Assembly (NCBI GenBank): GCA_035395685.1
Contig: DAOPBR010000007.1
Location: 918 to 64,917 of the forward strand
DNA: 64,000 nt
From: Spirochaetota bacterium
Lineage (GTDB): Bacteria; Spirochaetota; UBA4802; JAFGJZ01
Reading direction: 5' to 3'
The notes under the pieces were generated by a model that had not been told where the DNA came from, ran no database searches, and worked only from the letters and a program-made list of their open reading frames with translations. Of the stretch, positions 16,869 through 63,567 are shown piece after piece. A program made the translations under genes and the position numbers. Within the stretch, counting starts at the first letter, position 1; every line of letters starts with the position of its first letter.

Positions 16869-16941
<73 letters not shown>

Positions 16942-33160: not shown

Positions 33161-35599
33161 ATGTCAAAATTTTTAATTATCGGCGGCGTTGCCGGAGGAG
33201 CAACAACTGCGGCACGCCTCAGAAGAATCGATGAAGAAAGCGAAATTATAATTATTGAACGCGGAGATTACATTTCATACGCTAACTGCGGACTTCCCTA
33301 CTACATCGGCGGAACAATTGAAAAACGCGAATCGCTCTTCGTTCAGACTCCTGAATCGTTTTTCAAAAGATTCAATGTAGACGTCAGAATAAAATCAGAA
33401 GTCATATCAATAAACAGAGATAAGAAAACAGTCACAGTAAAGGAATCATCCGGAAAAACATACGAAGAAAATTATGACAAACTGGTTCTTTCTCCGGGAG
33501 CCGAACCCATAAAACCCATGATTGACGGAATTAATGATCCGGCAATCTTCACCTTGCGTAGTGTTCCCGACACAGATAAAATCAAAAAATACATAAATGA
33601 TAACAGGCCAACATCTGCAATTGTAATCGGAGGCGGCTTCATAGGTCTCGAAATGGCCGAAAATCTTCACGCACTCGGAATAAAAGTATCTATCGTCGAA
33701 ATGGCTGATCAGGTAATGACGCCTGTTGATTACGAAATCGCGGCATATGCCCATCATCACATCAAAACCAAAGGTGTAGATCTTTTTCTCGGCGACGGCA
33801 TAGCTTCATTTTCACGAAACGGAAATTCCGTTTCGGCAAGGCTCGCGAGCGGCAGAGAAATTGTTTCCGACATGATAATTCTTTCAATAGGAATAAAACC
33901 TGACACCGCATTTCTGCGGACTTCCGGCATTAATCTCAGCGATAGGGGCGCAATTATCGTTGATGAATTTCTGCGCACAAATGACGAAAATATTTATGCT
34001 GTCGGTGACGCAGTAATATTCACAAGTCCGGTAACGAATAAACCCCTGCCAGTATTTCTCGCAGGACCTGCGAACAAGCAGGGAAGAATCGCCGCTAACA
34101 ATATAGCGTTCGGAAATACGGAGAAATACAAAGGTTCGATTGCAACGGCAATAGCAAAAGTTTTTGATCTTACTATTGCTTCATGCGGTCTTTCTGAAAA
34201 ATTTCTAAATGCTCAATCTATCAAATGCAAAAGTTCAATAACAATCAGCGCTTCTCATGCGTCATATTACCCTGGCTCGACTACCATGACAATCAAGCTT
34301 GTTTTCGATCCTGACAACGGAAAAATCCTTGGAGCACAAATAACAGGCTATGATAATGTCGAATCAAAGATAAACATGATTGCGGCTGTGATGGGGATGA
34401 ACGGAACAGTCACCGATCTAAGAAACATTGAACATGCATACGCACCGCCTTATTCTTCAGCAAAAGACGCTGTGAACATCGCGGGCTTCACAGCAGAAAA
34501 TATAGTAAAAGGTGAAGTTCAAACTCTTTCATGGAATGATGTAAAAAGCATTTATCCTTCAGACTGGCAAATAATTGATGTAAGAACTCCGGCAGAATAC
34601 GAGCTCGGTTCGATTATGAATTCAATCAACATTCCGATTGATTCTCTCCGTTCAAGGATTGATGATGTCAGCAAGGACAAAAACATACTGCTTTACTGCG
34701 CGGTAGGATTGAGAGGATATGTTGCGCTTAGAATATTGAAAAACAAAGGATTCAAAAACGTTTATAATCTTTCAGGCGGATACAAGTTATATTCAACTGC
34801 ATCACAAAAGATCGAAGACGGAATAACCCAGGAATGGACAGGAAATGATTCAGGCGAAAAAACAAAAGACAATACCACTGCTGAAGGAAAATCTTTCACA
34901 GTTGATGCCTGCGGACTTCAGTGTCCGGGTCCTGTTATGCGGCTGAAATCAGAAATAGAGAAATTATCAAGCGGAGATATTTTAACAATAAGAGCAACAG
35001 ATGAAGGTTTCATGCGCGATGTCGGCGCATGGTGCCTGATGACAAAAAACACACTTCTTTCAGTAGATAATGAAAAAGGTATCGTCACTGCCCGCATACA
35101 AAAGGGAGCAAAATCTTCTATAAGCGGCAGTAGAGACAATAAAACAATTGTAGTTTTTTCTGATGATCTTGACAAGGCTATCGCCGCTTTTGTAATCGCA
35201 AACGGAGCAGCAAGCACAGGCAAGAAGGTGACCATATTTTTTACATTCTGGGGACTGAACGTTATCAAAAAACGCAAATCAAGATCCAAGAAAGATTTCT
35301 TCTCGAAAATGTTTTCATTCATGATGCCGAAGGGAAGCGGTGAACTCGATTTATCGAAGATGAACATGGCAGGCATGGGTCCGAAGATGATAAGATGGAG
35401 GATGAAGAAAAAAAACATTGATTCTCTCGAAGCAATGATTCAGTCTGCCCTCACGAACAATATTGAATTTATGGCATGTCAGATGTCAATGGATGTAATG
35501 GGAGTTAAAAGAGAAGACTTGATTGACGGAGTTACGATCGGCGGCGTAGCGGCATATCTCAACGAAACCGAGTCAAGCAGTCTCAATCTGTTCATATGA
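33161..35599 (+). CDS. Four-domain CoA-disulfide/persulfide reductase: FAD/NAD(P) oxidoreductase (CoADR-like) + rhodanese + TusA-like + DsrE/DsrF-like
   Basis: SYANCGLPY redox Cys; rhodanese active-site CAVGLRG; TusA CPGP motif (ACGLQCPGPVMRLK); C-terminal DsrE-like domain. Confidence 0.75.
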   Translation: MSKFLIIGGVAGGATTAARLRRIDEESEIIIIERGDYISYANCGLPYYIGGTIEKRESLFVQTPESFFKRFNVDVRIKSEVISINRDKKTVTVKESSGKTYEENYDKLVLSPGAEPIKPMIDGINDPAIFTLRSVPDTDKIKKYINDNRPTSAIVIGGGFIGLEMAENLHALGIKVSIVEMADQVMTPVDYEIAAYAHHHIKTKGVDLFLGDGIASFSRNGNSVSARLASGREIVSDMIILSIGIKPDTAFLRTSGINLSDRGAIIVDEFLRTNDENIYAVGDAVIFTSPVTNKPLPVFLAGPANKQGRIAANNIAFGNTEKYKGSIATAIAKVFDLTIASCGLSEKFLNAQSIKCKSSITISASHASYYPGSTTMTIKLVFDPDNGKILGAQITGYDNVESKINMIAAVMGMNGTVTDLRNIEHAYAPPYSSAKDAVNIAGFTAENIVKGEVQTLSWNDVKSIYPSDWQIIDVRTPAEYELGSIMNSINIPIDSLRSRIDDVSKDKNILLYCAVGLRGYVALRILKNKGFKNVYNLSGGYKLYSTASQKIEDGITQEWTGNDSGEKTKDNTTAEGKSFTVDACGLQCPGPVMRLKSEIEKLSSGDILTIRATDEGFMRDVGAWCLMTKNTLLSVDNEKGIVTARIQKGAKSSISGSRDNKTIVVFSDDLDKAIAAFVIANGAASTGKKVTIFFTFWGLNVIKKRKSRSKKDFFSKMFSFMMPKGSGELDLSKMNMAGMGPKMIRWRMKKKNIDSLEAMIQSALTNNIEFMACQMSMDVMGVKREDLIDGVTIGGVAAYLNETESSSLNLFI

Positions 35600-43299: not shown

Positions 43300-43650
43300 G
43301 TGTTTATGAATACATCATCACAAGCCGCACAAGTGGTAATTGCGGTGATCCCGATTGCAGGGATAATGATGGGAGGAGCCGTGGCGCTTTTGTATCTCAT
43401 CTATGCGCATAAGCAAAAAATGCTTATGATTGAAAAAGGCGTTTTTAAAAAAACAAGAATCGATCTCCGAGGTATCGTTTTCTTTTCGGGATTTCCATTA
43501 AGCGCGACAGGATTGGGACTCACGCTTTTTTTTGCAATAAAAGACGGAATCAATTACGGAATGCTGAGCGGTCTTATCCCGCTTTTTATCGGCATCAGCT
43601 TTATTATTTATAATTTTCTCAAGCATTCAACAACTTCGGACCGGGGATGA
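43300..43650 (+). CDS. Small membrane protein (3-4 TM), first gene of ECF sigma operon
   Basis: Hydrophobic profile. Stop overlaps the sigma-factor start. Confidence 0.35.
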   Translation: MFMNTSSQAAQVVIAVIPIAGIMMGGAVALLYLIYAHKQKMLMIEKGVFKKTRIDLRGIVFFSGFPLSATGLGLTLFFAIKDGINYGMLSGLIPLFIGISFIIYNFLKHSTTSDRG

Positions 43651-44201
43651 ATCAGCTTTCAGACGAACAGATAGTAAATTCAGTTTTAAACGGAGATACC
43701 GAGGCCTTTTCTGAACTGATAACAAGGTACAATAACCGTGTGTTTGCAGTCGGAATGAGGCTTTTTAAAAATCAGGATGATGCCGGCGATTTTACGCAGG
43801 AGGTTTTCATCCGCGCATTCGACAAACTCAGCTTATTCAGCTTTATATCGCCGTTTTCTCACTGGCTTATTAAGCTCGCGTATAATTACGGAATAAACCT
43901 GCTGAAGAAAAAAAAGAAGGAAATTCCTTCAGATAAAATAGAAATTACATCTAAGGAAGATCAAAGTGAATCGTATTCAAAAAAGGAGCTCGCGGAACTT
44001 GTAAGAAGCGCCGTCGATACCCTTCCTGAAGACTATAGAATATGTGTTGATTTGTTTTTTTACTGGGACATGAAACTCACTGACATTTCGGCACTGACGA
44101 ATAAACCGCTTAACACGGTTAAATCAAACGTGCGCAGGGCAAAAATAATACTGCGCGACAAATTAAAAGGAACAATCGCGGAGGAGTACCATGAACTGTA
44201 A
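43647..44201 (+). CDS. ECF (sigma-70 family) RNA polymerase sigma factor
   Basis: Region 2 (FTQEVFIRAF) and region 4 helix-turn-helix (LTDISALTNKPLNTVKSNVRRA). Confidence 0.85.
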   Translation: MNQLSDEQIVNSVLNGDTEAFSELITRYNNRVFAVGMRLFKNQDDAGDFTQEVFIRAFDKLSLFSFISPFSHWLIKLAYNYGINLLKKKKKEIPSDKIEITSKEDQSESYSKKELAELVRSAVDTLPEDYRICVDLFFYWDMKLTDISALTNKPLNTVKSNVRRAKIILRDKLKGTIAEEYHEL

Positions 44202-44670
44202 TGACGCAACACGTATAATCGACTACATAATAACAGGAAAAGAAAGCAAATCTTTCATCAGGCATATTGAAGAATGCCCGGTCTGCGCTAAAGAATACCA
44301 TGAATTTATGAAAATAAAAAAGATGGCATCGGAAGAAGATCTTTTTATTTCAAATGTAAAACCCGAAAGCATAATGGATAAAATAAAAGTCAGAACAAAG
44401 GAAGTATCTTCATATCCATGGGCGATAGCAATCATCGTGTCTCTGATCGGCATCATGCTGGTTTCGCCTATTACACATGAACTTCAAAACAGCTACCCTG
44501 ACGCGGGAAGTTTTTCAATAATCCTGAATCTTGTATTCGGTCTTTTGATCAGTTGTTTCATATTCATGTACATGTACACGCATCATGATAAATCGAAACG
44601 CATTGCGCAGTTTTTAAAGAGAGAGCATCATCATTTGATGCATATAGCAGACAGGTCGTTGAGGAGATAA
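44191..44670 (+). CDS. Zinc-binding (ZAS-type) anti-sigma factor with TM segment
   Basis: HIEECPVC HxxxCxxC motif plus a TM helix. Confidence 0.65.
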   Translation: MNCNDATRIIDYIITGKESKSFIRHIEECPVCAKEYHEFMKIKKMASEEDLFISNVKPESIMDKIKVRTKEVSSYPWAIAIIVSLIGIMLVSPITHELQNSYPDAGSFSIILNLVFGLLISCFIFMYMYTHHDKSKRIAQFLKREHHHLMHIADRSLRR

Positions 44671-45488: not shown

Positions 45489-45797
45489 ATGCCGAAACAC
45501 TCATGCGACAAATGTTCCGAAAAACTTGCACATCATTCATCCGAATTAAAATCCGATATAGACAAAAGAATATCCAAAATCGAAGGTCAGATAAGGGGAA
45601 TACGAAAGATGATTTCCGAAGACAAGTACTGCGATGACGTATTGAATCAGATTACGTCCGCGCAATCAGCATTAAACAGCGTCAGGATCATGCTTCTTGA
45701 AAACCATATTAATTCATGTGTCGCAGAACAGCTTGCTGAAGGCGATAAGTCCGTTATTGACGAGTTAATGAAAACAATAGCGAGAATGGTGAGGTAA
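45489..45797 (+). CDS. csoR: CsoR/RcnR-family copper-sensing repressor
   Basis: DUF156 pattern with YCDDVLNQ … H … C ligand set. Confidence 0.85.
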   Translation: MPKHSCDKCSEKLAHHSSELKSDIDKRISKIEGQIRGIRKMISEDKYCDDVLNQITSAQSALNSVRIMLLENHINSCVAEQLAEGDKSVIDELMKTIARMVR

Positions 45798-45859
45798 TAA
45801 TGAATCCAGACGTCTTCAGCGGAAGCGGCGGATCGATGCACGGAATGTAAGGAGATTAT

Positions 45860-48004
45860 ATGAAACAGTCGGAATTTATCATTACAGGAATGAGTTGTGC
45901 AGCATGCAGCGGACGCGTTGATAAAAAAATCTGTTCGCTTCCGGGGGTGCAAAGCGCAAACGTGAATCTGGCAACAAACAAAGTTATGGTAACATATAAC
46001 GAAGAGACTGTCAGAGTTGATGATATAATTTCGGCTGTACGCTCCATCGGATTCGGCGCGGAGGAATTTCAGGAGAATACCGCCGAGAAATCAAGACTTG
46101 ACGAGTTAAAGTCGCATAGACTTTCCTTCATAGTCTCCGGCATACTTTCCTTTCCGCTTCTGGTTTCAATGATTCTTATGCTATTCAAAACCGGACCCGA
46201 TTTCCTTCACAATCCGGTTTTTCAGTTCATTTTGGCAACTCCGGTTCAGTTTATCATCGGCGCCAGATTCTATAAAAAAAGTTTCATAACATTAAAAAGT
46301 CTTTCTCCCGGCATGGACATTCTCGTCGCGCTGGGAACGAGTGCTGCGTATTTTTACAGCGCTTTTAACACCTTTATACGTCCGGATCATTTCCATATAT
46401 ATTATGAAGCCGGAGCAGTAATAATAACCCTTGTTATACTCGGAAAATATCTCGAATCACGCGCTAAATACAAAACATCATCTTCAATCAGAAAATTAAT
46501 TGATCTTAAACCGAAAACTGCCCGCGTTATACGGGAAGGAAAAGAATATGAAATAAACAGCTCCGAGATAATTATCGGGGATGAAATCATTGTACGACCA
46601 GGAGAAAAGTTTCCTTCGGACGGAACGGTAATCGGCGGTGAAAGCTCCGTTGACGAAAGCATGATTACCGGCGAAGGAATACCCGTTTATAAAAATGCCG
46701 GAATGAAAGTCCTCAGCGGATGTATAAATATCGACGGTGTAATACATTTCCGTTCTGAAAAAAACGGCAAGGATACACTTCTTGCCCAGATTATTTCAAT
46801 CGTTGAAAAAGCCCAGAACTCGAAAGCACCGGTGCAGGATCTCGCAAACAGAATTGCCGGAATTTTCGCGCCTTCAATAATCATAATATCAATAATAACG
46901 TTTTTTGCATGGTTTTTAATTACTGGTGACTTATCAAACGCAATTATCAATTCAGTAGCCGTTCTTGTAATAGCCTGCCCATGCGCTCTTGGACTCGCGA
47001 CTCCGACAGCCATAATGGTCGGAACAGGAATAGGAGCTGAAAGAGGAATATTAATACGCGACGCGGAAGCACTGGAACGCGGTGAACAGATCAACGCTGT
47101 AGTTCTTGATAAAACAGGAACCATAACTGAAGGCAAGCCTTCCCTTTCATCGGTAGTCAGCATTAATGAAACTCCGGTATCTGATCTGGAATTGATACGA
47201 AAATGCGCATCCCGTTCGGAACATCCTTTATCGAAAGCTGTTTCTATACCTATCGAAGATATGTTAATTGATTCTTTCACATCTTTTCCCGGAAGGGGAT
47301 TCAAAGCAGTTAAATCCGGAAAGAGTGTCATTCTTGGAAGCATGCGCTTTTTGGAATCAGAGGGAATCGATACCGGCATATTTGAAAATCATATAAATGC
47401 TTACAGAGGTTCTTCCATCGTTGCAGCAGCGATTAACAATAAACCTGCCGCATTGTTTATACTAAACGATAGGATTCGCCCAGAATCGGTTGAAGCTGTT
47501 AAAGTCCTTCAAGAAAGATCAATAGAAGTATACATAGTCAGCGGAGATTCACGTGAAGCCGTATTGGCTGCCGCTGACAGCCTTGGCATTCTCCGCGACA
47601 ATGCAGTCTTTGAGGCGCTTCCGTCCCGGAAATCTGATTTCGTAACGTCACTTAAAGACAATGGCAAAAAGGTTCTTTTCGCAGGCGACGGAATTAACGA
47701 CGCTCCCGCGCTGGCAACATCTGATCTTGGAACTGCACTGGGAAGCGGAACTGACATAGCTATTGATTCGGCACACATAGCCCTTATCCGTCCGGATCTG
47801 CGGGCAATAATAACCGCGCTGGATCTGTCAAAGGCAACAATGAAAAAGATCCGCCGTAATCTTTTTTGGGCTTTTTTTTACAATTCATGCGGAATTCCGA
47901 TTGCGGCAATGGGATTTCTGAATCCTGTAATAGCCGGAGCCGCTATGGCGCTTAGTTCGGTATCAGTTGTTATGAATTCATTGTCTCTAAAAAGATTCAA
48001 GTGA
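45860..48004 (+). CDS. copA: Copper-translocating P1B-type ATPase with N-terminal HMA domain
   Basis: GMSCAACSGRV, CPC (ACPCALGLATP), DKTGT and GDGINDAP motifs. Confidence 0.95.
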   Translation: MKQSEFIITGMSCAACSGRVDKKICSLPGVQSANVNLATNKVMVTYNEETVRVDDIISAVRSIGFGAEEFQENTAEKSRLDELKSHRLSFIVSGILSFPLLVSMILMLFKTGPDFLHNPVFQFILATPVQFIIGARFYKKSFITLKSLSPGMDILVALGTSAAYFYSAFNTFIRPDHFHIYYEAGAVIITLVILGKYLESRAKYKTSSSIRKLIDLKPKTARVIREGKEYEINSSEIIIGDEIIVRPGEKFPSDGTVIGGESSVDESMITGEGIPVYKNAGMKVLSGCINIDGVIHFRSEKNGKDTLLAQIISIVEKAQNSKAPVQDLANRIAGIFAPSIIIISIITFFAWFLITGDLSNAIINSVAVLVIACPCALGLATPTAIMVGTGIGAERGILIRDAEALERGEQINAVVLDKTGTITEGKPSLSSVVSINETPVSDLELIRKCASRSEHPLSKAVSIPIEDMLIDSFTSFPGRGFKAVKSGKSVILGSMRFLESEGIDTGIFENHINAYRGSSIVAAAINNKPAALFILNDRIRPESVEAVKVLQERSIEVYIVSGDSREAVLAAADSLGILRDNAVFEALPSRKSDFVTSLKDNGKKVLFAGDGINDAPALATSDLGTALGSGTDIAIDSAHIALIRPDLRAIITALDLSKATMKKIRRNLFWAFFYNSCGIPIAAMGFLNPVIAGAAMALSSVSVVMNSLSLKRFK

Positions 48005-48013
48005 AATATGGAA

Positions 48014-48050
48014 ATCAGCTGAAGAACTTTTAAATCGCTCTTCAGCTGAT
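48014..48050 (+). terminator. 12-bp hairpin after copA (terminator-like, weak U-tract)
   Basis: ATCAGCTGAAGA-(13 nt)-TCTTCAGCTGAT. Confidence 0.35.
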
Positions 48051-48415
48051 ACTCCTCTTAATCTCAAATATTGCCGGCATTATTTAATCAGCACTGCAGC
48101 ATGAATACAAAGTAATGTTGCTAACTCGCTTTTTTTATTCCTTCTTATTCATAATATTTTTCAGAAAATACACAGATCGATGATTCAGAGTAAACTTAAT
48201 ATATTTAGTTCCGCTTATCCGGAAAATGTTATTATTTAACCTGAAAACAGCATTTTGATTTCAAAAACATCATATTAGTCTATTTTGTATATCATTTTCG
48301 GTCATTATTTAACATCCAGTTATTAATAGACCGTTTGTTTTTCTTGCTTAAAAACACTTAAAACGAAAAATGAGTTATACTGAAGGGTGAAACAAGATTC
48401 GGCGAAGGAGGCAAT

Positions 48416-48781
48416 ATGAAACTTTTAATTGTTGATGACTCTAACATAATGCGGCGTGCAATAGAAAAATACTTAAGCGCCTTCAATCTCGAAATTGTCG
48501 GAAATGCCGGAGACGGAGAGAGTGCACTTGCAATTTTTTCCGAAACTCTGCCTGACATTGTAACACTGGATATAACAATGCCGCGCATGGACGGGCTGTC
48601 ATGCCTCGATAAGATAATGCAGATAAAACCCGACACCAAGGTAATAGTAATAAGCGCTCTCAAAGATCCCGCTACGGGCATTCAGGCTATAAAAAAAGGC
48701 GCGAGAGGATTTCTTTCAAAGCCGTTTTCACAGGAAGAGATTATAGAAGAAATGAAAGCATGCCTTGAAGATTCCGAATAA
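48416..48781 (+). CDS. CheY-like single-domain response regulator
   Basis: REC pattern (LIVDDS … DITMPRMDG … SALKD). GGAGG ribosome-binding site. Confidence 0.85.
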   Translation: MKLLIVDDSNIMRRAIEKYLSAFNLEIVGNAGDGESALAIFSETLPDIVTLDITMPRMDGLSCLDKIMQIKPDTKVIVISALKDPATGIQAIKKGARGFLSKPFSQEEIIEEMKACLEDSE

Positions 48782-48792
48782 GGAGAAATAAA

Positions 48793-49239
48793 ATGACTGA
48801 ACTTGAAATCAAAGGATTCATAAAAGTTTTAACCGATTACTTCTTAAGCGTTACAGGATCTCCGGCCAACATGGGAGTTCCTTTTATAAAAGAAAACAGC
48901 ACTGAAGTTTTCGATTACGTCGCTGTCATAGGAATTTCCGGCTCGCGAAAAGGCGGAGTATATTTTACTGCAAACAGACCGCTGCTCGAAGAAATCGCCC
49001 GTCATATTTTAGGCGAAACCGGTCTTGATGATGCAACGCTTTATGATCTAATCGGAGAAATGACAAACACAATATCCGGAAACATGAGAGAACTTTTCGG
49101 AAGCACCTTTCTGATATCCGTTCCCATAATTCTCAAAGGCAATATTGACGAAGTTGTGCTCAGGCTCAAGCCGCCTGTATACGTTATTCCAATAGAATGG
49201 AACGGACACAAATCGCATTTGGCAATAGGACTGGAATAA
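48793..49239 (+). CDS. CheX/CheC-family phosphatase-like protein
   Basis: GEMTNTISGN E-x2-N motif. About 148 aa. Confidence 0.55.
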   Translation: MTELEIKGFIKVLTDYFLSVTGSPANMGVPFIKENSTEVFDYVAVIGISGSRKGGVYFTANRPLLEEIARHILGETGLDDATLYDLIGEMTNTISGNMRELFGSTFLISVPIILKGNIDEVVLRLKPPVYVIPIEWNGHKSHLAIGLE

Positions 49240-49240
49240 A

Positions 49241-51970
49241 ATGGAAAAGAGCACCATTGACATACTGTGGATCATCATCGCTTCGACCCTTGTTTTCATT
49301 ATGCAGGCGGGCTTTGCGATGGTTGAATCGGGACTAACCCGTTCAAAGAACAGCATCAATGTAGCTATCAAAAACCTTACCGACCTCGGAATATCGACTC
49401 TGTGTTTCTGGGCATGCGGATTCGCAATGATGTTCGGCGCATCAGCTTACGGTTTTATCGGCAGTGACAATTTTCTGTTTCATCCAGTAAGCATATGGGG
49501 CGCAGTCTTCTTTCTATTTCAGGTAATGTTCTGCAGTACATCCGCAACAATTGTTTCCGGAGCTGTCGCCGAAAGAATGAAATATTCATCATACATAATT
49601 TCAACCGCTCTGCTTTCGGTTATCATATATCCCATATTCGGTCACTGGGCATGGGGCGGTTTTATGGAGGGCGTACCAAGCGGCTTTCTCGGAAAACTCG
49701 GCTTCATTGACTTCGCGGGCTCAACAGTCGTTCATTCCGTCGGAGGCTGGGTCTCTCTCGCAGTACTTTTGATCATAGGTCCGAGAAGCGGAAAATTTGC
49801 AGAAGACGGAACATCCCGCCAGATAAACGGGAGCAATATTCCCATAACAGTACTTGGTGTAATGATACTCTGGTTCGGCTGGTTCGGATTCAACGGCGGA
49901 AGCACTCTCGCCATGAATGAAACAGTTCCTTCAATAATTCTCAACACTACTCTTGCCGCATCAGCAGGAATGATCGGATCGCTTATGGTCGGTTGGCCGA
50001 TACTTAAAAAACCCGACATACTTCTTGTTCTAAACGGTTCGCTTGCCGGTCTTGTTGCAATAACTGCATCATGTTTCGCAGTAACTGAAATTGAATCGGT
50101 CATAATCGGATTTGTCGGAGGCGCCGTAATGCTCGCCGCGACAGTCATCCTTGAAAAACTTAAGATTGATGACGCGGTCGGAGCAATTCCAGTGCATCTT
50201 GTTGCGGGCATATGGGGAACAATTGCCGTTGCTGTTTTCGGCGATCCCGCGATATTAAATACCGGTCTAGGATTCATAGGTCAGCTCAAGATTCAGTTAA
50301 TAGGAATTGCTTCATGCGGAATTTGGTCTTTCGGCGTTGCTTTTTCGGTGCTGTTTATAGTTAATAAAATATCACCTCTAAGAGTTTCAAAAGAAGACGA
50401 ACATACGGGATTAAACAAAACCGAGCACGGTGTTACAACTGAAATATTTGAATTATTTTCCGTACTCGAAGCACAGTCAAGAACAGGCGATCTTTCTCTT
50501 CGCGCACCGGAAGAACCCTTCACTGAAATCGGCCAGATTGCAAAAATGTATAATTCTGTAATGAGAAAACTCGAATCCGGTACTGTCGAAAAGGGAGAAT
50601 ATCTTAATATTCTTGATAATGTTTCCGATGGACTGATACTAATCGATAGAAGCGGAACAATTTCTCAGTATCATTCCGCTTCGATGAAGAATCTTTTTTC
50701 AACGGAATTAATTTCCGGAAAAAACTTTAAGGACTTGTTAAGCTCGCGCATTCCCGAAAACGTATTAGCTATACTTGATGAATTTCTTGAAATCGCGTTC
50801 GACAAAAAGAAAAGCTTCCGTATTGTCGAGAAGATGAATCCGATTCCCGAAATAGAACTGTCTTTTGATAATTTGAACGGCGGTTTTAATGTTAAGTATT
50901 TTCAATTTATATTCAAGCGTATTGTTAAAAATTCCGAAGTATCAAGACTAATGATTGTAATACGCGATATAACAAGACAAAGAGAGCTTTCGCAGGAGGT
51001 TGAAGAAAACAGAAAGAGAACATCAGTTGAAATGGAACTCTTCTATAGAATTCTTCATGTGGAACCGGCATCAATGCGCGACTTTCTGACATCGGCTGAA
51101 ACTGATTTATCTGAAATCAATTCCGTGATGTCGGAATCACAAACAGAATATTATGAAAGACTAAATGAAATATTCAGACGCATTCATGCCGTAAAGGGTG
51201 ACGCCGACATGCTCGGCCTGGACTTTATTGCAGAAAAAGCGCAGATTATGGAAACGAATGTCGCTGAAGCATTAAGAAGCGAATCACCTTCAAATGAAAT
51301 ATTTCTATCGCTCGCTCTTAAGCTCGGGGAGATAAGGGAGTTGCTCTTTAAAATAGATTCTCTTATGAAAAAATGGAAGACCATGCATGCTGAAATTTCT
51401 GATGACAATAGATCATTTCTTCCAAGAGCACTTTCAGATCTTGCCGCACGGCTTTGCGAACGACATAAAAAAAGCGTCAAAGTAGAATTTGATTCCGGGA
51501 ATACTGAGGAAATTCCATCCGCCGTATTCAAACACGTGAAGGATATTCTTGTTCAGCTTGTCAGAAATTCTGTTTATCATGGAATAGAAAATCCCGAAGA
51601 AAGAAAGAAACTCAACAAAGACTCAAGCGGAAAAATAGCGATTAAAACGCATAAGGAAAACGGAAAACTTATTATAAAATATAAAGACGACGGCTCGGGT
51701 CTAGACAGCGATAAAATAAAACAAACGGCATTGGCTAAAAAGCTAATTACCGAAGATGATTCTTCCGCTTTAACGGAAAAAGACATATTCGCTCTGGTTT
51801 TCAGACCTGATTTCTCAACATCAGATTCTGTAAACAAAACCGCCGGGCGCGGAGTCGGAATGAATCTTGTAAAAACTCTCATAACCGGGCTAAAAGGCAA
51901 AATCGCACTTAGATCAAAAAGAGGCGAATCGCTTGAATTCGAAATTCATATTCCAATCGAGGCAAAATGA
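49241..51970 (+). CDS. Ammonium transporter (Amt) fused to PAS, Hpt (CheA-P1-like) and CheA-P4-like ATPase domains
   Basis: Amt signature DFAGSTVVHSVGGW and 11 TM helices. HAVKGDADMLG Hpt. LVRNSVYHGIE…DDGSGLD…GRGVGMNLV CheA-type catalytic domain. No P5/CheW-like domain. Confidence 0.7.
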   Translation: MEKSTIDILWIIIASTLVFIMQAGFAMVESGLTRSKNSINVAIKNLTDLGISTLCFWACGFAMMFGASAYGFIGSDNFLFHPVSIWGAVFFLFQVMFCSTSATIVSGAVAERMKYSSYIISTALLSVIIYPIFGHWAWGGFMEGVPSGFLGKLGFIDFAGSTVVHSVGGWVSLAVLLIIGPRSGKFAEDGTSRQINGSNIPITVLGVMILWFGWFGFNGGSTLAMNETVPSIILNTTLAASAGMIGSLMVGWPILKKPDILLVLNGSLAGLVAITASCFAVTEIESVIIGFVGGAVMLAATVILEKLKIDDAVGAIPVHLVAGIWGTIAVAVFGDPAILNTGLGFIGQLKIQLIGIASCGIWSFGVAFSVLFIVNKISPLRVSKEDEHTGLNKTEHGVTTEIFELFSVLEAQSRTGDLSLRAPEEPFTEIGQIAKMYNSVMRKLESGTVEKGEYLNILDNVSDGLILIDRSGTISQYHSASMKNLFSTELISGKNFKDLLSSRIPENVLAILDEFLEIAFDKKKSFRIVEKMNPIPEIELSFDNLNGGFNVKYFQFIFKRIVKNSEVSRLMIVIRDITRQRELSQEVEENRKRTSVEMELFYRILHVEPASMRDFLTSAETDLSEINSVMSESQTEYYERLNEIFRRIHAVKGDADMLGLDFIAEKAQIMETNVAEALRSESPSNEIFLSLALKLGEIRELLFKIDSLMKKWKTMHAEISDDNRSFLPRALSDLAARLCERHKKSVKVEFDSGNTEEIPSAVFKHVKDILVQLVRNSVYHGIENPEERKKLNKDSSGKIAIKTHKENGKLIIKYKDDGSGLDSDKIKQTALAKKLITEDDSSALTEKDIFALVFRPDFSTSDSVNKTAGRGVGMNLVKTLITGLKGKIALRSKRGESLEFEIHIPIEAK

Positions 51971-53064
51971 AAGGAGTAAATCTAAACTGCGAAACTAATT
52001 GTCGCTTTTTCAAGTTTTACAAAAATTCGAGAGAAGCTATGTTCATCACGAATATCGACGGAACTTATTTCGATGTAAATAAAAGCATGGAAAAACTTCT
52101 CGGCTATTCACGTGATGAATTCCTTTCAATGAAAGCCGCCGATACTTACTTTGACCAGTCCGAACGCTCGGCTTACAGAAGCATGATTGAAAAAGACGGA
52201 GTGGTTCACAATTATCCTATAACACTCAAGCGCAAAGATACCTCGCCTCTTCCCTGCCTAATAGATGCAGTAACATGGGAAGAAGACGGAGTTCTCAAAG
52301 GATATCACGGCATAATAAAAACCCGTGATGACGTAATGGATTCATTTCAGAATCTTTTTCTGAAATTAAAAAATGAAGAAGAAAAGCTGAAAAATGAAAG
52401 ACGTAATCTCGCAAACGACGCCAAACTTCTGATGCAGTATGTTTCGGATGATCTGATACGCCACATTCAGGACACGGGAGAGAATCCGCTTTCAAGCACA
52501 AAGAAAAAAGGAACGATGATGTTCTTTGATATCAGAAATTCTACCGCAATAGCCGGGAAACTTCAGCCTGATGTTTTCGCGTCATTGCTTTCGGATATTT
52601 TTACTGACACGATGGATCTCATATACGGCAACAGCGGCTCAGTTAATAAACTCGTCGGTGACGGATTTCTGGCGACTTTCGGATGCCCGGTTTCATGCGG
52701 AAATGATGCTGAAAATGCAGTCAGAAGCGCACTTCAGATAATGGAATATTTGAAAACATTCAACGATGTCAGACCTGATTATCTTGCAGAACCTATAAAA
52801 GCCGGAATAGGAATCGCGACCGGAACGGTTTTTTCGGGCGTTATAGGTTCGGTAAGACGGCAGGAATATACCGTTCTAGGAGATGCTGTAAACATTGCAA
52901 GCAGGCTTGAGTCATTTACAAAGAACGTCAATTTCAATATAATAATTGATGAAAACACATACCGTGAAACTTCTGAAATATGCAAGTGGGGAAAAATAGC
53001 AAACGTGATGCTGCGCGGCAAACCGGACGCGTTTACTCTGTACGGTTACAACAGCTTAGGGTAA
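51967..53064 (+). CDS. PAS-domain class III adenylate/guanylate cyclase
   Basis: MFFDIRNSTAI … VGDGFLATFG cyclase motifs. ATGA overlap with the upstream gene. Confidence 0.75.
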   Translation: MKGVNLNCETNCRFFKFYKNSREAMFITNIDGTYFDVNKSMEKLLGYSRDEFLSMKAADTYFDQSERSAYRSMIEKDGVVHNYPITLKRKDTSPLPCLIDAVTWEEDGVLKGYHGIIKTRDDVMDSFQNLFLKLKNEEEKLKNERRNLANDAKLLMQYVSDDLIRHIQDTGENPLSSTKKKGTMMFFDIRNSTAIAGKLQPDVFASLLSDIFTDTMDLIYGNSGSVNKLVGDGFLATFGCPVSCGNDAENAVRSALQIMEYLKTFNDVRPDYLAEPIKAGIGIATGTVFSGVIGSVRRQEYTVLGDAVNIASRLESFTKNVNFNIIIDENTYRETSEICKWGKIANVMLRGKPDAFTLYGYNSLG

Positions 53065-56496: not shown

Positions 56497-58392
56497 CTAT
56501 TCAAAACTCAAAGTGCTGTGCTTATCGTTGCCGGTTTCTTTCTGGTATTTCGCAAAATCAGCTGCAGTAGATTTGTAACTATCGCCGATCGGATCATTAG
56601 TCCATAGCATAAAATCCTTATTTTCAGGCTGAATATATGTATTATTGTCAACAACGATCTTTTCAAGATCATTATACAACTGCTGTCCGCCCCATGTATC
56701 AATTATAAGTGACCGCGCATTCTTAAAAGTATTACCGGTAAAAAACATATTTTTTATCTTCGCGGTACTTTTGAACATCAGAATATGACAACCCCACAGC
56801 CACGGATAATGATTCTCTTCGTTGCCTGACCAGCCGTATCCTGAATCTTCAAGAAGATTATTTTGGAAGTATATATTCTCCATAATGCAGTTTTCGCCCT
56901 GACCCCATACTTCATAAGAGGCTTCACAATTAAAAATATGATTGTTGCGGATGATAATATTACGCTGAATTACTCCGTCAGTTCTGCTTTGATTGCTTAT
57001 TCCGGTATCGAAACATTCACTAACCGAACATCCTTCAATGAGACAATCGCTTGCATTATTCCAGAATTCAATTCCATTGCCGTATCTTCCGCAATGTGTC
57101 TGAAATGCACCGCCTATATAACTGACATCGCAGTCTTTGATAATAATATTTTTTGTTTCACCGCCGCCGATGCCGTGAGCACCGCCGTGCATAAGTTTCA
57201 GATTCGAGTACTGAACATAACTTACGTTTTCCTGCTGAATGATGTTTCTGCGCTGTGAAAGCTCTATGCTTTTATATAACTTCGCTGGATTATCAGAAGA
57301 TACGACCTTCACTCTTTGATTTTCTGCATCATAAATGAAGTCATTCTGTTTATCCAGCTCATACTCATAGAAACATTTTTCTTTAGATGATGTTTTATCA
57401 AACATAATGTTGCCGATATCAAAAACCAACGGATCTGACTCGAGTTCTTTGAAACTTATATCATCGAAGTATACAGTCGAACCGCTTGGGATGCTGTCTC
57501 CCATGAATAAATCAAATGATGCATCTGATGCCGTAGTTGTTGCTTTGAAGTTATATGTGAAACGCGTCCATGTATCCGTAATTGCAGATGAAAACTGAGT
57601 CGATTCAAAATATTTCATCGCATTCGACGCATCTCTTTTGTCGATAACACCATATGGACGGAAAGAACTCGTAGCCTTTGCCATGAAACTCAACTGATAA
57701 TTTTTTCCGGCAACAATATTGATATCACTGCTTGAAATATATATATCCCACGAGCTTAGACCGATTTGATCTGCTTTGATACTCAAACATGCAGGAGCAC
57801 TGTAATATTCATCAGTATTTCTTATGTACGATCCTTCTGCATTGCCGGATTTTTTTATCTGTATTATCCAGCCGCTAAGATCGGAGTCAAAGGAACCGTT
57901 AGTAATAAGTTCTGAAGCACTCGACTTAATTTTATTTGCAGTACTCCAGATGTTTCCGCCGATATTCTCCCAGTCACTTTCATTGTTCTTTGAAACTGAT
58001 CCAAGAATAAGAGGCTTGTCTCCGTCTCCGTAAGATGTATAGTGAATCAGCGCGGAAGAATTGCCGCTCTTCGGTATCAGCTGACCACGCCATACACCGC
58101 CGCTTTTAAATTTGATTACATCTCCCGGCTTGAATTCGAATGAATTTACTTTATCAAGAGTTTTCCATGGAGAGTTTATACTCTTTCCGCTATTCTCATC
58201 ATTTCCGTCGTTGCTTACATAATACGTTGTTCCGGTTCCAGTCGTAAAAACAATCGAATCCGTGGGATTCTTCGGACTTTTCGGATTCTTCGGATCGTCA
58301 TCGTTGAAAACATTGTCCGAATCACTTCCGCCGGAAGAGCAGGAACATAGAAGAGAAGCCGTTAAACAAAAAAGCGCAAGTTTCTTAATCAT
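56497..58392 (-). CDS. Lipoprotein with CBM4/9-like carbohydrate-binding module and right-handed beta-helix (pectate-lyase-fold) repeats
   Basis: Signal + LLCSCSSGGS. NGSFDSDLSGW CBM pattern. Repeated NNxI/N…C beta-helix turns. Confidence 0.5.
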   Translation of the reverse strand: MIKKLALFCLTASLLCSCSSGGSDSDNVFNDDDPKNPKSPKNPTDSIVFTTGTGTTYYVSNDGNDENSGKSINSPWKTLDKVNSFEFKPGDVIKFKSGGVWRGQLIPKSGNSSALIHYTSYGDGDKPLILGSVSKNNESDWENIGGNIWSTANKIKSSASELITNGSFDSDLSGWIIQIKKSGNAEGSYIRNTDEYYSAPACLSIKADQIGLSSWDIYISSSDINIVAGKNYQLSFMAKATSSFRPYGVIDKRDASNAMKYFESTQFSSAITDTWTRFTYNFKATTTASDASFDLFMGDSIPSGSTVYFDDISFKELESDPLVFDIGNIMFDKTSSKEKCFYEYELDKQNDFIYDAENQRVKVVSSDNPAKLYKSIELSQRRNIIQQENVSYVQYSNLKLMHGGAHGIGGGETKNIIIKDCDVSYIGGAFQTHCGRYGNGIEFWNNASDCLIEGCSVSECFDTGISNQSRTDGVIQRNIIIRNNHIFNCEASYEVWGQGENCIMENIYFQNNLLEDSGYGWSGNEENHYPWLWGCHILMFKSTAKIKNMFFTGNTFKNARSLIIDTWGGQQLYNDLEKIVVDNNTYIQPENKDFMLWTNDPIGDSYKSTAADFAKYQKETGNDKHSTLSFE

Positions 58393-60333: not shown

Positions 60334-63300
60334 TTAACTGAAAAGATCCATTATATCATCGCCTGAAAGCGACTTGAAAAATGATGCTTCTTCTGTAATC
60401 AAGTCATTGACCAGCGCTCGTTTTTTATCCTGAAGAGCTAATATTTTTTCTTCAATTGTGTCTTTAACAATCATGCGGAATGCCGTAACCTTTTTAGTTT
60501 GACCGATACGGTGTGCTCTGTCTACAGCCTGAGCTTCCAGCGCGGGATTCCACCATGGATCAAACAATATGACGCAGTCTGCCGAGGTGAGATTGATTCC
60601 GACACCGCCGGCTTTTAAACTTAAAAGAAAAATGTTGATATCATGATTATTCTGAAATTTATCAATTTCCGCGCCGCGGTTTTTCGTAGATCCGTCAATG
60701 TAAGAAAACGGCAGTTTTCTCTGTTCTATTTCTTCTTTGATTATATTAAGCGATTGAACGAACTGCGAAAAAATCAGAACTTTGCGCCCTTCCGAGACCA
60801 AGTCGTCAAGCATGTCCTTAAGCATCTCAAATTTACATGACGAGACATTCTTAAACTGCTCTGAAGCAATTACCGGAAACAATGCTATCTGCCTCAACCT
60901 GAGAAGCGCTTCAAAAATTTCAATCGCGGATTTATCTTTCCCTTTTTCTTCAATAGTCTTTTTTATTTTTGTGCTGAATTCTTTACGCAGAGTTTCATAA
61001 ACCTTTTTCTGATCGGCATCCATTTCGCTGAAAACTGTGATCTCTTCTTTTTCCGGAAGTTCTTTAGCAACCATATCCTTTTTTCTTCTCAGTATGAACG
61101 GAAATATAATCGAACGCAGTCTCGCGGCAGCATCCTTATTGCCGTATTTTTCAATCGGATTGGCATAATTTTTTTTAAAGCTGTCTTTATTGCCGAGAAG
61201 ACCGGGGTTCAGAATATCAAACAGAGCCCAGAGTTCACCTGTATTATTTTCAATCGGCGTGCCGCTCAAAGCCAGCCGGTGTTTTGTCCTTATTTCTTTT
61301 ACAGTTTTAAATGCCTGCGATGAAGCGTTTTTGACATTCTGCGATTCATCAAGCACCATAATGCTGAATTCCATATCAGAAAAAATACTCATATCAATCC
61401 GAAGCGTATGATAGCTTGTAATAATTATATCATTCGTAATTATTTCATCACGATCACTCTTTCTGAACTGCCCCAGATGCCGGATAAATTTTAACGAAGG
61501 AGTAAAGCGCTTAATTTCATTTTCCCAATTCGGCACTGTTGAAACAGGCACAATCAGAAGAGCCGGACGGAGTTTTTTTTCTTCCTTCATTTTTTGCAGC
61601 ATAGCAAGAGTCTGCACAGTCTTTCCAAGCCCCATGTCATCGGCAAGACATCCGTTAAGCGAATGCTCGCGTAGAAAATTAAGCCAGTTATAACCTTCAG
61701 CCTGATAATCTCTCAGCTTTCCATTGAATTTCTGCGGAAGTGAATATTTTCCGATTCCGCTAACGGTTTTCAGTTTAGAATATATTGCTCTAATCTCTTC
61801 AACTTCCCGGTTTTTAGCGGATGAAGTTTCAGCGGATATCATTTCAATAGCAGGAAAATCAAGGCGGTTGATTTCAATTTCACCGCGATTATTCATTCCG
61901 CGGTTTTGAAGCTGATTTATCTTTTCTATATCCTTCTCAGAAATATAAACATAAGAGTTCTTTGTTTTTAAGAAACCGCTTTTCAAAAGACTGTAATCTA
62001 TTTCAATATCTTGTTTGCTGTTGTCATCATCGATGTATTCGGCTTTTGCGCTGAACCAGTCAATTCCCGGCTGTATTCTGAAAGCTACTTTGCCGCCCGC
62101 ACTTCTGATTTTAACACCGTCTTTCTTTAGTCTTAAATTTATATCGGCATCAAATAATTTCTTTCCGCATGAAAATAAAAAATCATGCAGATTAACAGAA
62201 ATATTTATTGAATCAGTCGGCGGAGAATAACGGTAAAAAGGCTGCTGGTGTTTTGACACCTCTATACCTGCTTCATTGATTACAGCTTTTATATAATTGC
62301 TGATACTGTTTTCATAATCCATGTTACGTTCATAAACGGTAAAAGTATCACCGGTTTGTTTCCGCACAGGATTCAGAATTATTTCCCGTCTATCATGCGG
62401 AAATTCTCTTCCATTATAATCGAAGAAAAGCTTTAAGGAACATGAATTGTAAGAATTTTCTATTTCAAGCAGCGGACTGCCGGAAGCTTTGATAACTTCG
62501 AGTTTTTCCGCCTCAAAATTTATTTTTAGATTTGATCCGGGATGATTCAGAGAATATTCCTTATAACTTTTAATTTCTCCGTAAACCGATTTACCTGATC
62601 TACTCAGATGATTTTTTATAAAAGAATTCAACTCATAATTGCCTGTGCTGTAAAAATACATGCCCGATTCATCACGGCATACAGTTGAATAACCGTCGGA
62701 TTGAATTATATTCAAAGGCGTATCTGAAGTTTTACCATTAATAATAACACGAAGCTCAGGAATAAACTCCGGGTAATTATTATAAAGAGAACCGAGCTTA
62801 AACGAAATTTCAACTCCTTTAAACGGCATAAACTGAGTATCTGCTTTTTTGTTTGTGAACGCATCAATAAAAGCTATTTTATTGACCCGCTTAAGATACG
62901 GGATTATTGACAAAACAGTAATTTCAGCATTCTGAACATACATCGGCATCATCAATAGAAGCTTAAGTTCATCCTCGTTCAGCTGTTCGGTTATCTTGTG
63001 ACGTTCATATTTTTCGGTTCGGCCGTAAGTGCCGTCTTTTTTCAAATATCTGCAGACGGGTTTTAACGCGATAAGATTAGGATCACTTTGACTGCGCCTG
63101 ATTTCAAAAGCAATCGAGAATCTTTCATTCTCTTTCCGGGATGCAAGATGTGCCTCATTCTTTAGCTCATGATAATCAAAAGACGCGGATGAATTAAGAG
63201 CTATTGTTGTTTTTCTGTCATCTGCAGGTTTTTCAGGAAGAACAAGGACTTTATCTGCATTGTAGATATCACAAACCCGCAGAAGAAGAGCTACAGCATG

Positions 63301-63567
63301 CTTGCAGTTTATTTCGTAAGGGCAATTGCATCTGCCGATACCCTTTTCCAAATCAAAGAATGTAACATACGGCTTACTCTCTGAGCCCTTCACTCTACCG
63401 GAAATAAAGTTTTCATAAATTTCAGCATCAACAACGTATCCCAGCTTATAATAATTCAAGCCTCTATCATAAATCGTCTTATCAAATAAGGAACGTATTA
63501 TTTCGGGATTTAATTCATTTATGCTCAATTTCAATTCAGTCACCGTACAAAATTGGTTTATGTTCAA
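60334..63567 (-). CDS. SNF2-family helicase with N-terminal SWIM zinc finger
   Basis: CNCPYEINCKHAVALL SWIM motif; DDMGLGKT Walker A; DESQNVKN; C-terminal helicase motifs (LILFDPWWNPA…QAVDRAHRIGQ). Confidence 0.85.
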   Translation of the reverse strand: MNINQFCTVTELKLSINELNPEIIRSLFDKTIYDRGLNYYKLGYVVDAEIYENFISGRVKGSESKPYVTFFDLEKGIGRCNCPYEINCKHAVALLLRVCDIYNADKVLVLPEKPADDRKTTIALNSSASFDYHELKNEAHLASRKENERFSIAFEIRRSQSDPNLIALKPVCRYLKKDGTYGRTEKYERHKITEQLNEDELKLLLMMPMYVQNAEITVLSIIPYLKRVNKIAFIDAFTNKKADTQFMPFKGVEISFKLGSLYNNYPEFIPELRVIINGKTSDTPLNIIQSDGYSTVCRDESGMYFYSTGNYELNSFIKNHLSRSGKSVYGEIKSYKEYSLNHPGSNLKINFEAEKLEVIKASGSPLLEIENSYNSCSLKLFFDYNGREFPHDRREIILNPVRKQTGDTFTVYERNMDYENSISNYIKAVINEAGIEVSKHQQPFYRYSPPTDSINISVNLHDFLFSCGKKLFDADINLRLKKDGVKIRSAGGKVAFRIQPGIDWFSAKAEYIDDDNSKQDIEIDYSLLKSGFLKTKNSYVYISEKDIEKINQLQNRGMNNRGEIEINRLDFPAIEMISAETSSAKNREVEEIRAIYSKLKTVSGIGKYSLPQKFNGKLRDYQAEGYNWLNFLREHSLNGCLADDMGLGKTVQTLAMLQKMKEEKKLRPALLIVPVSTVPNWENEIKRFTPSLKFIRHLGQFRKSDRDEIITNDIIITSYHTLRIDMSIFSDMEFSIMVLDESQNVKNASSQAFKTVKEIRTKHRLALSGTPIENNTGELWALFDILNPGLLGNKDSFKKNYANPIEKYGNKDAAARLRSIIFPFILRRKKDMVAKELPEKEEITVFSEMDADQKKVYETLRKEFSTKIKKTIEEKGKDKSAIEIFEALLRLRQIALFPVIASEQFKNVSSCKFEMLKDMLDDLVSEGRKVLIFSQFVQSLNIIKEEIEQRKLPFSYIDGSTKNRGAEIDKFQNNHDINIFLLSLKAGGVGINLTSADCVILFDPWWNPALEAQAVDRAHRIGQTKKVTAFRMIVKDTIEEKILALQDKKRALVNDLITEEASFFKSLSGDDIMDLFS

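Follow-up and report, generated by a model that had tools for sequence, protein, structure and literature searches.

The stretch examined here is 64,000 nucleotides of DNA from a Spirochaetota bacterium (GenBank assembly GCA_035395685.1, contig DAOPBR010000007.1, positions 918 to 64,917 of the forward strand; hereafter the window, whose own numbering is used throughout). Positions 48416-53064 of its forward strand hold a tight operon of four genes, encoding a CheY-like receiver, a CheX protein, a 909-aa fusion of an ammonium transporter (Amt) module to a kinase, and a class III adenylate cyclase with a PAS domain (Table 1). The open reading frames (ORFs) are separated by 11 bp and then by 1 bp, the stop of the kinase gene overlaps the start of the cyclase gene by 4 bp, and a GGAGG ribosome-binding site is present at 48408-48412, 4-8 nt upstream of the first ATG. 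A first-pass annotation, prepared from the nucleotide sequence and translated ORFs, had placed these four genes at 48416-53064, the cyclase gene overlapping the one before it, and our coordinates confirm it. The motifs that it quoted from the kinase are likewise all found in the translation: DFAGSTVVHSVGGW in the Amt module, HAVKGDADMLG in the Hpt domain, and LVRNSVYHGIE and GRGVGMNLV in the N box and G box of the catalytic domain. An identical 909-aa protein has been deposited at NCBI as HOF32636.1, under the name "ammonium transporter [Spirochaetota bacterium]".

Table 1. The four-gene operon, its leader, and the domains of the Amt-kinase fusion (positions in the window).
Feature	Position	Strand	Basis or remark
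Intergenic leader	48005..48415	+	5' of operon; sequence read
CheY-like single-domain response regulator, 121 aa	48416..48781	+	Pfam Response_reg 6e-29
CheX-type CheY-P phosphatase, 148 aa	48793..49239	+	Pfam CheX 2e-15
Amt-(HAMP-like)-PAS-Hpt(P1)-HATPase(P4) sensor kinase, 909 aa	49241..51970	+	Pfam, NCBIfam, PDB matches, AlphaFold2
Amt module, residues 1-395	49241..50425	+	Pfam Ammonium_transp 8e-118
HAMP-like two-helix linker, residues 396-445	50426..50575	+	Sd-Amt1 alignment and AlphaFold2
Cytoplasmic PAS fold, residues ~464-576	50630..50968	+	AlphaFold2
Hpt / CheA-P1-type four-helix bundle, residues 609-715	51065..51385	+	Pfam Hpt 3e-8
CheA-P4-type ATP-binding kinase domain, residues 726-909	51416..51967	+	PDB CheA 6s1k 3.6e-31
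PAS-class III adenylate cyclase, 365 aa	51967..53064	+	Pfam Guanylate_cyc 7e-24, PAS_9 3e-11

The C-terminal part of the fusion protein resembles the catalytic core of the chemotaxis kinase CheA. In an AlphaFold2 model that covers residues 396-909 and draws on 84 sequences (mean pLDDT 85.6), the Hpt domain resolves into helices at residues 609-631, 637-657, 661-679 and 686-715. The predicted phospho-acceptor, His649 (codon 51185-51187), lies in the second of these helices, and the alignment with the P1 domain of E. coli CheA obtained in our PDB search puts His48 of that protein opposite it. His649, Lys652 and Gly653 are invariant in the family, the histidine being found in all 84 aligned sequences. 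The domain that follows is modelled as an alpha/beta domain at residues 726-905, gives a match to Pfam HATPase_c (3e-12), and aligns with residues 335-507 of E. coli CheA; in Foldseek it superimposes on CheA P4 structures with TM values of 0.8-0.88 and rmsd of 2-3 A. Against the NCBIfam models the kinase matches CheA_Halo at 6.5e-45 and E. coli CheA at 6.8e-35. The residues of the N box (Q772, R775, N776, H780, G781 and E783), of G1 (D816, G818 and G820) and of G2 (G869, G871 and G873) are all invariant. Pfam, NCBIfam and PDB matches, the Pfam scores being well beyond chance, thus bear out the reading of this protein as an Amt module joined to an Hpt domain and a CheA-like catalytic domain, with both the Hpt and the HATPase profiles recognizing the C-terminal region. 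We also considered a pseudogene or an inactive kinase, and rejected it on the invariance of His649 and of the catalytic boxes over 84 sequences, down to 34% identity.

Several domains of CheA are missing from the fusion. That it lacks P5, the CheW-binding domain, had been noted in the first pass, and this part stands: the 909-aa protein gives no match to the CheW Pfam model, its C-terminus comes 4 residues past the last P4 strand in the AlphaFold2 model, and the tail beyond the G2 box is at most 63 aa across 120 homologues. The earlier description was incomplete, however, in that P2 and P3 are missing as well, and in that a HAMP-like linker between the Amt module and the PAS domain had been overlooked. 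P2 is absent in the alignment with E. coli CheA. For P3 there is no Pfam match, and a profile made from four canonical CheA proteins scores a hhalign probability of 0.1% against the family. The gap between the last Hpt helix and P4 is only some 10-27 residues long, and in all 120 homologues the N box lies 123-142 residues from the histidine. A survey of CheA architecture found Hpt, P3, P4 and CheW domains in 100% of CheA proteins, and portrays CheA as a kinase that lacks a sensor domain and senses via dedicated chemoreceptors (PMC10782961). Because P3 and P5, both universal in that survey, are missing from the 909-aa protein, it is CheA-derived but is not a CheA by the survey's definition.

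One might still suppose that this is an ordinary CheA, coupled to arrays of CheW and methyl-accepting chemotaxis proteins (MCPs) encoded elsewhere, to which the Amt fusion is incidental. P1 and P4 are CheA-like, CheY and CheX are classical chemotaxis genes, and spirochaete che operons have the order cheA-cheW-cheX-cheY. We regard this explanation as very improbable, and rejected a conventional che operon on the missing P5 and P3 and on the gene context. For the latter, ORFs in the flanks, from approximately 33 to 64 kb of the window, were scanned individually with Pfam, and the other large ORFs were covered by a list of 25 families; neither the scanned flanks nor the listed families include cheW, mcp, cheB, cheR or glnK. 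In eleven other loci, whose neighbouring genes were annotated with Pfam or scanned with five cassette proteins as queries, no cheW or mcp was found beside the cassette either, and the fusion itself is conserved in more than 120 clusters of proteins, as described below. The first-pass view that the four genes are not a piece of a normal che operon is therefore upheld.

At its N-terminus the protein carries an Amt module that we regard as receptor-like, as two solved ammonium receptors outscore the transporters by far. In the ranking of PDB matches, Sd-Amt1 of Shewanella denitrificans (8qj3, 8e-121) and Ks-Amt5 of "Candidatus Kuenenia stuttgartiensis" (6eu6, 4e-98) come before Af-Amt1 (3e-62) and AmtB (1e-38). 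The Sd-Amt1 study (PMC11152129) defines the receptor class by the residues that bind ammonium at two internal sites, N1 and N2; in Sd-Amt1 these ligands are Q22, E29, N45, D48, T104 and S107. The PDB alignment places Q22, E29, N45, D48, T103 and S106 of the window protein at the equivalent positions. Further receptor residues are also found, namely the switching Lys44, Tyr118 and Asn265, the last of which aligns with Asn269, the residue that narrows the exit in Sd-Amt1. Across 18 homologues the ligands, together with K44, Y118 and N265, show little or no variation, and a relaxed pattern limited to the ligand residues recovers the set in 113 of 120 family members. The pore residues are present too: the twin histidines H165 and H319 and D157 are invariant in alignment A1, as is a conserved GWFGFNGGS segment that we mapped by eye to the Phe-gate/Ser region of AmtB. 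With pore residues, ligand residues and a C-terminal cytoplasmic transducer (residues 396-909), the protein has the sequence attributes of the sensor Amt (AmR) class, apart from the literal published signature discussed below.

The state of the pore raises another possibility, which is compatible with signalling: that the protein is in the first place a working ammonium transporter (a transceptor), whose kinase tail reports or regulates the flux, and that it does not sense external ammonium by means of a dead-end binding site. H165/H319, D157 and the segment mapped by eye are all conserved, and Cluster-2 Amts with the N1/N2 motif include proven transporters such as plant AMT1 (PMC11152129). 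We nevertheless consider transport as the primary role unlikely. The closest solved relatives are two receptors in which ammonium is bound but not transported (PMC5764959, PMC11152129), Asn265 matches the exit-narrowing residue of one of them, and the scanned flanks hold no glnK gene for a P-II partner.

Between the Amt module and the Hpt bundle lie two further segments. The linker is modelled as two helices (residues 397-415 and 429-445; pLDDT 63-75) and contains the motif GDLSLRAPEEPFTEIGQIAKMYNSVMRKLE. Its residues align with the segment of Sd-Amt1 that was named HAMP by the authors of that work (PMC11152129), in an alignment that extends to residue 439; we term it HAMP-like only, because the Pfam HAMP model does not detect it. 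The second segment, a five-stranded sheet with a pLDDT of approximately 90, has a clear PAS fold in the AlphaFold2 model, in which a helix connects it to the Hpt bundle. Its Pfam matches are weak (PAS_4, E 0.018; PAS, E 0.067), with PAS_4 reaching 7e-6 in family member P0125. The model thus agrees with the PAS-like segment reported in the first pass.

Pfam and PDB matches also support the earlier identification of the other three products of the operon. The best PDB matches of the receiver are all CheY proteins (6er7, 3e-27; T. maritima CheY 1tmy, 5e-25; Borrelia CheY3 3hzh, 2e-18), and its predicted key residues comprise an acid pocket at D7/D8, the phospho-acceptor D52, S80, F99 and K102. 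A strict regular expression for the CheY motif fits 16 of 19 cassette receivers. CheX scores 57 bits in Pfam, the cut-off being 27, and its catalytic motif GEMTNTISG (E89, N92) aligns with GEVTNMISG of the CheX in PDB entry 3hm4 (9e-12); GExxN is found in all 20 cassette CheX proteins. Judged by their sequences, receiver and CheX both look functional. In the cyclase, the PAS domain spans residues 13-117 and the catalytic domain residues 180-351. In the catalytic domain, FFDIRNST and VGDGF hold the metal-binding Asp residues, NKLVGD and EYTVLGD the Lys and Thr of the substrate pair, and AVNIASR the Asn and Arg of the transition state. Its best PDB match is the adenylyl cyclase OaPAC (1e-20), with which it shares the D of FFDIRNST, K-x2-GD, YT-x-LGD and VN-x-A-x-R. 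Because the Lys/Thr pair is present, we infer that ATP rather than GTP is the substrate.

More than 120 clusters at 90% identity share the full-length architecture of the kinase, with identities to the window protein of 46-95%. Every stated taxon falls within Spirochaetota (Treponema, Spirochaetales and similar), and the proteins are annotated only as "ammonium transporter". The design is thus common in spirochaete genomes. To compile gene neighbourhoods we scanned a genome collection with a full-length alignment keyed on Amt motifs, in which 75 of 80 loci were other Amt proteins and were not used for the cassette statistics, and rescanned metagenomes with a C-terminal alignment, which added 16 cassette loci. 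The resulting 28 cassette loci collapse to 23 that are non-redundant (<85% identity), and those with a stated taxon are all from Spirochaetota. In every locus with enough upstream DNA (19 of 19), the receiver and CheX genes are directly upstream of the kinase. The fourth gene is more variable: of the 16 loci in which it could be assessed, 11 have an orthologous PAS-cyclase there and 3 a CBS-SpoIIE (PP2C) phosphatase, and the other 2 have no related gene. Treponema brennaborense, for example, has the receiver, CheX and kinase without the cyclase. Because the cyclase is present in only 11 of 16, we take the conserved core to be three genes, with the cyclase as a frequent but optional fourth. The genes that flank the cassette are unrelated from genome to genome.

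These comparisons refine the first-pass interpretation. A self-contained system independent of chemoreceptors is backed by the invariable linkage to CheY and CheX and by the family-wide absence of P5 and P3. A conserved cassette of four genes held for the receiver, CheX and kinase and failed for the cyclase. As a whole the interpretation is partly supported. The Amt-kinase fusion is not rare, and is one member of a larger class of sensor-fused Hpt-P4 kinases, which we describe below.

We also note a 591-aa ORF in the metagenome-assembled genome (MAG) of an uncultured Treponema (locus L003, 4164-5939), which has the Amt and HAMP/PAS parts but no kinase, and has no receiver or CheX gene upstream. 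It may be a truncated or frameshifted member of the family, or a separate architecture.

When the Hpt-P4 fragment was compared with 1.84 billion representative proteins, 1651 matches were returned at E<=1e-30. Among the best 150 of these, 118 have a contiguous Hpt-P4 unit that ends at the C-terminus, only 8 of the 118 carry an Amt module, and a canonical CheA tail (approximately 150 residues) is found in only 8 of the 150. The non-Amt members fuse the Hpt-P4 core to MASE6, GAF, PAS-GAF, HAMP or Reg_prop/Y_Y_Y sensors. Wherever their taxon is recorded, Spirochaetia and Leptospiraceae are the sources, and the annotations read "ATP-binding protein" or "Hpt domain-containing protein". These proteins, such as WP_420069782.1 of Rarispira pelagica, resemble the window kinase in the core that ends at the C-terminus (31-38% identity) and differ from it in having input domains other than Amt. 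They resemble it in gene context as well. In five non-Amt loci, a single-domain receiver adjoins or is near the kinase in all five, CheX is found in four and a cyclase in two. One of the latter, in a Leptospiraceae MAG (L170, 3186-6949; GCA_033762425.1), has the order receiver, CheX, GAF-Hpt-P4 kinase and REC-class III cyclase, and the catalytic domain of that cyclase is 48% identical to that of the window PAS-cyclase: it is of the same subfamily, with a receiver in place of the PAS domain. In the other, the cyclase is directly downstream of the kinase. Over the catalytic domain and the preceding helix, the cyclases of the two cassettes are 48-50% identical to the window cyclase.

The four-gene layout is thus a recurring spirochaete cassette with exchangeable sensors, and the sequences point to a broad class of chemoreceptor-independent "mini-CheA" cassettes in Spirochaetota. 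The receiver carried by the L170 cyclase speaks for a genuine output role of this subfamily downstream of Hpt-P4 kinases. Besides L170, P3/P5-less Hpt-P4 kinases were seen in L088 (Rarispira pelagica), L089, L171 and L172, with MASE6, GAF, HAMP or Reg_prop/Y_Y_Y sensors, each near a single-domain receiver and mostly with CheX; L171 has two CheX genes, and one 975-kb contig holds at least two non-Amt Hpt-P4 cassettes.

It is conceivable that a cyclic nucleotide (cNMP) is the only real output, such that the phosphorelay, by way of CheY~P or of direct contact between kinase and cyclase, switches the PAS-cyclase, while CheY and CheX serve mainly as a tunable sink for phosphate and not as a motility signal. 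Translational coupling ties the cyclase to the kinase, and the enzyme is kept in 11 of the 16 cassettes; the same subfamily follows non-Amt Hpt-P4 kinases, once with a REC domain, and there CheY and CheX would compete for the phosphate; and cyanobacteria fuse the same type of Amt straight to a PAS-cyclase. CheY and CheX are universal, however, whereas the cyclase is missing or replaced by the PP2C phosphatase in 5 of the 16 Amt cassettes and missing in 3 of the 5 non-Amt ones, and the cyclase of the window has a PAS domain and no receiver. Because there are cassettes without a cyclase, an output that runs through the receiver only must exist, and we consider the cNMP-only explanation credible but less likely. 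The cNMP output proposed in the first pass is accordingly plausible for this operon, which does encode the cyclase, but does not extend to the cassettes in which the cyclase is absent, and is not matched by a receiver on the enzyme.

We think it probable that the operon encodes an ammonium-responsive phosphorelay, assembled from chemotaxis parts and working without chemoreceptors. In the mechanism that we propose, the 909-aa protein would be a sensor Amt, that is, an ammonium receptor, and by homology a trimer in the membrane. Occupancy of N1 and N2 by ammonium would be transmitted through the HAMP-like linker and the PAS domain to the minimal CheA-type kinase, in which P4 would phosphorylate His649 on the adjacent P1 bundle. 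Because P3 and P5 are absent, we assign both of the usual scaffold roles to the Amt oligomer, which would stand in for the MCP/CheW array and for the P3 dimer. From P1 the phosphoryl group would pass to Asp52 of the co-transcribed receiver and be removed by CheX, giving a fast, reversible signal. Since the receiver and CheX are universal partners, and since a dedicated phosphatase implies fast signalling, CheY~P would be the conserved output, acting by protein-protein contact on a target outside the operon. That target would most likely be the flagellar switch (FliM/FliN), with ammonium taxis as the result. A second branch would run, in this lineage, through the translationally coupled PAS-adenylate cyclase to cAMP, and in sister lineages through the CBS-PP2C phosphatase. 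The sequences and their comparison establish the domain identities, the catalytic residues, the lack of P2, P3 and P5, the gene linkage and the distribution, whereas we infer the ammonium dependence, the direction of regulation, the phosphotransfer, the activity of CheX and both outputs.

A number of observations weigh against this proposal. CheA autophosphorylation normally occurs in trans within the P3 dimer, and the activity of a P1-P4 unit without P3 is a prediction. In 5 of 16 cassettes another gene or none takes the place of the cyclase, and the operon's own enzyme, with its PAS domain and no receiver, offers no visible route for reading the phosphorelay. The Pfam HAMP model gives no match to the linker even at E<=10, so that its assignment comes from homology to Sd-Amt1 and from a model of moderate confidence. 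The pore residues, twin His and Phe gate alike, are intact, and plant AMT1 transporters also have the N1/N2 motif and yet transport (PMC11152129). Finally, the literal receptor signature Q-X6-E-X15-N-X2-D-[F/T]-X54-60-T-X2-[S/T] (PMC11152129) is unmatched in the window protein, in which Leu49 replaces F/T and the spacer is 53 residues; this strict form of the published AmR signature fits only 1 of 120 family members. Position 49 is not among the ligands of Sd-Amt1 (PMC11152129).

Combining the operon with the wider class yields a more ambitious reading: that Spirochaetota have a large and so far unrecognised class of mini-CheA systems, each consisting of a sensor joined to P1-P4, with no need of P3, CheW or MCPs, with its own CheY and CheX and often with a cyclase, and that the member in the window, which has a trimeric Amt input, steers motility and cAMP in parallel. 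We advance this joint picture tentatively, with somewhat less than even confidence.

If this joint picture holds, the window protein would be the first ammonium receptor for which the entire downstream pathway can be read from one operon, and it would imply that CheA-type catalysis can run on a scaffold that is not dimeric. Sensor Amts were defined as a class not long ago, and only two of them have been studied; in both, a trimeric sensor clashes with a dimeric transducer. With the receiver, the phosphatase and a candidate effector encoded beside the sensor, and with the phospho-His on a monomeric Hpt bundle, one could test directly how an Amt trimer passes its signal to a defined pathway. In chemotaxis research, the protein would stand as a natural CheA catalytic core that works without P3, P5, CheW and chemoreceptors. 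Hundreds of comparable kinases that carry other sensors, now annotated only as "ATP-binding protein" or "ammonium transporter", are indicated as well. The cassette also suggests a way in which ammonium could guide or reprogramme spirochaetes that live in ammonium-rich anaerobic habitats.

No clear promoter and no regulatory RNA could be assigned to the operon. A scan yielded 17 promoter-like sites, not clearly above the 12.6 +/- 3.6 obtained with shuffled sequence, and 2 terminator-like sites as compared with 5.1, none of them found downstream of the cyclase. Rfam gave no match in the leader; its only match in the window is a single tRNA gene (16869-16941, reverse strand).

The genes around the operon are of diverse kinds. 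Directly upstream, on the same strand, a gene for a CsoR-type metal-sensing repressor (45489-45797) precedes one for a P-type ATPase that bears a heavy-metal-binding domain (45860-48004), and together (45489-48004) they are probably a copper-export operon; downstream, on the opposite strand, is a pirin gene (Pfam). Farther upstream, also on the forward strand, an ECF-type sigma factor (Sigma70_r2/r4_2) overlaps a 159-aa ORF without a Pfam match (43647-44670), which may be its anti-sigma factor, and an 812-aa protein (33161-35599) combines pyridine nucleotide-disulphide oxidoreductase, rhodanese, TusA and DsrE-like domains and looks like a fused sulphur-transfer/reductase enzyme. The reverse strand encodes a 631-aa protein that combines a carbohydrate-binding module with a beta-helix region (56497-58392) and a SNF2-family helicase of 1077 aa whose N-terminal part holds a SWIM zinc finger (60334-63567). 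The remaining large ORFs of the window match mostly housekeeping families (FtsZ, NadA, a class I Glu/Gln-tRNA synthetase, HydF and a homologue of Borrelia_P83, the last of which also indicates a spirochaete), and one HisKA_2 histidine-kinase family is also listed.

In other Amt loci, receptor-like modules followed by the same linker lead into a range of other signalling domains. In cyanobacteria the partner is a PAS-PAS-class III adenylate cyclase (L004, 7557-10757; L008, 8046-11330). Amt-PP2C fusions are found in Leptolyngbya and SAR11 (L018, L019-L035), in SAR11 often as two tandem copies; the SAR11 fusion has been noted before (PMC11796062). Because both enzymes are thus fused to the same type of sensor elsewhere, we link the separate cyclase and PP2C phosphatase encoded by the fourth gene of the cassettes to Amt sensing. 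Other Amt fusions (L005, L013, L009) include PAS-GGDEF-EAL proteins in proteobacteria and a 1673-aa PAS-GAF-HisKA-HATPase-REC hybrid kinase in Anaerolineaceae.

Partly within the same phylum, we found Amt modules joined to an MCP signalling domain (PF00015, E 4e-21 to 8e-31) in a Leptospira sp. MAG (L043, 7959-10241) and in Leptospira perolatii (L046, 7872-10229), and also in the metagenome contigs L111 (4068-8558), L112 (4980-9473) and L110 (2253-7140). In the three contigs the Amt-MCP gene is directly downstream of a canonical cheA with Hpt, H-kinase_dim, HATPase_c and CheW domains. By its domains, the Amt-MCP protein would be an ammonium chemoreceptor on an Amt scaffold. Like the window protein, it has a receptor-like Amt that feeds a chemotaxis-type pathway, but it takes the conventional route through an MCP domain, CheW and a full CheA, which the window protein bypasses by fusing Amt to P1-P4.

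Of the two studied receptors, Sd-Amt1 (Amt-HAMP-GGDEF; PDB 8QJ3/8QJ4; PMC11152129) shares with the window protein the N1/N2 ligands, K44, Y118/119 and the exit-narrowing Asn, and both proteins have a C-terminal cytoplasmic transducer. In Sd-Amt1 that transducer is a diguanylate cyclase, whereas in the window protein it is a PAS-Hpt-P4 kinase, predicted to transfer its phosphoryl group to a separate CheY that is reset by CheX. Sd-Amt1 also has Phe at position 49 where the window protein has Leu, and the loop that precedes T103 in the latter is shorter by one residue. Ks-Amt5 (Amt-DHp-CA; PDB 6EU6; PMC5764959) is, like the window protein, a fusion of Amt to a histidine kinase and shares the concept of the N1/N2 site; phosphorylation of its kinase is ammonium-dependent (PMC5764959). 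Its kinase is of the dimerising DHp (HisKA) type and has neither HAMP nor PAS, whereas in the window protein the phospho-His is placed on a monomeric Hpt bundle of the CheA type, and for that reason the mismatch between dimer and trimer seen in Ks-Amt5 may be absent from this design. The response regulator of Ks-Amt5 is still unidentified, while the window kinase has a receiver and a phosphatase encoded next to it. With canonical CheA (P1-P2-P3-P4-P5, as in E. coli and T. maritima; PMC10782961) the window protein shares a P1 in register, a CheA-like P4 and the CheY and CheX partners; it differs in having no P2, P3 or P5 and in having sensors of its own, Amt and PAS.

In the literature we found no description of Amt fusions to an Hpt/CheA-type kinase or to an MCP domain, although an earlier mention in listings of Amt-fusion architectures is possible, and no description of sensor-fused CheA-type kinases that lack P3 and P5; the survey of CheA architectures mentions neither ammonium nor Amt (PMC10782961). 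This agrees with the first-pass statement that an Amt-CheA hybrid with CheX and a cyclase was not known to have been described. What was known, then, are sensor Amts with a classical histidine kinase (Ks-Amt5) or a diguanylate cyclase (Sd-Amt1). What is new is a mini-CheA transducer with a complete pathway alongside, an architecture that is undescribed in the literature we found and is nonetheless visible in public databases.

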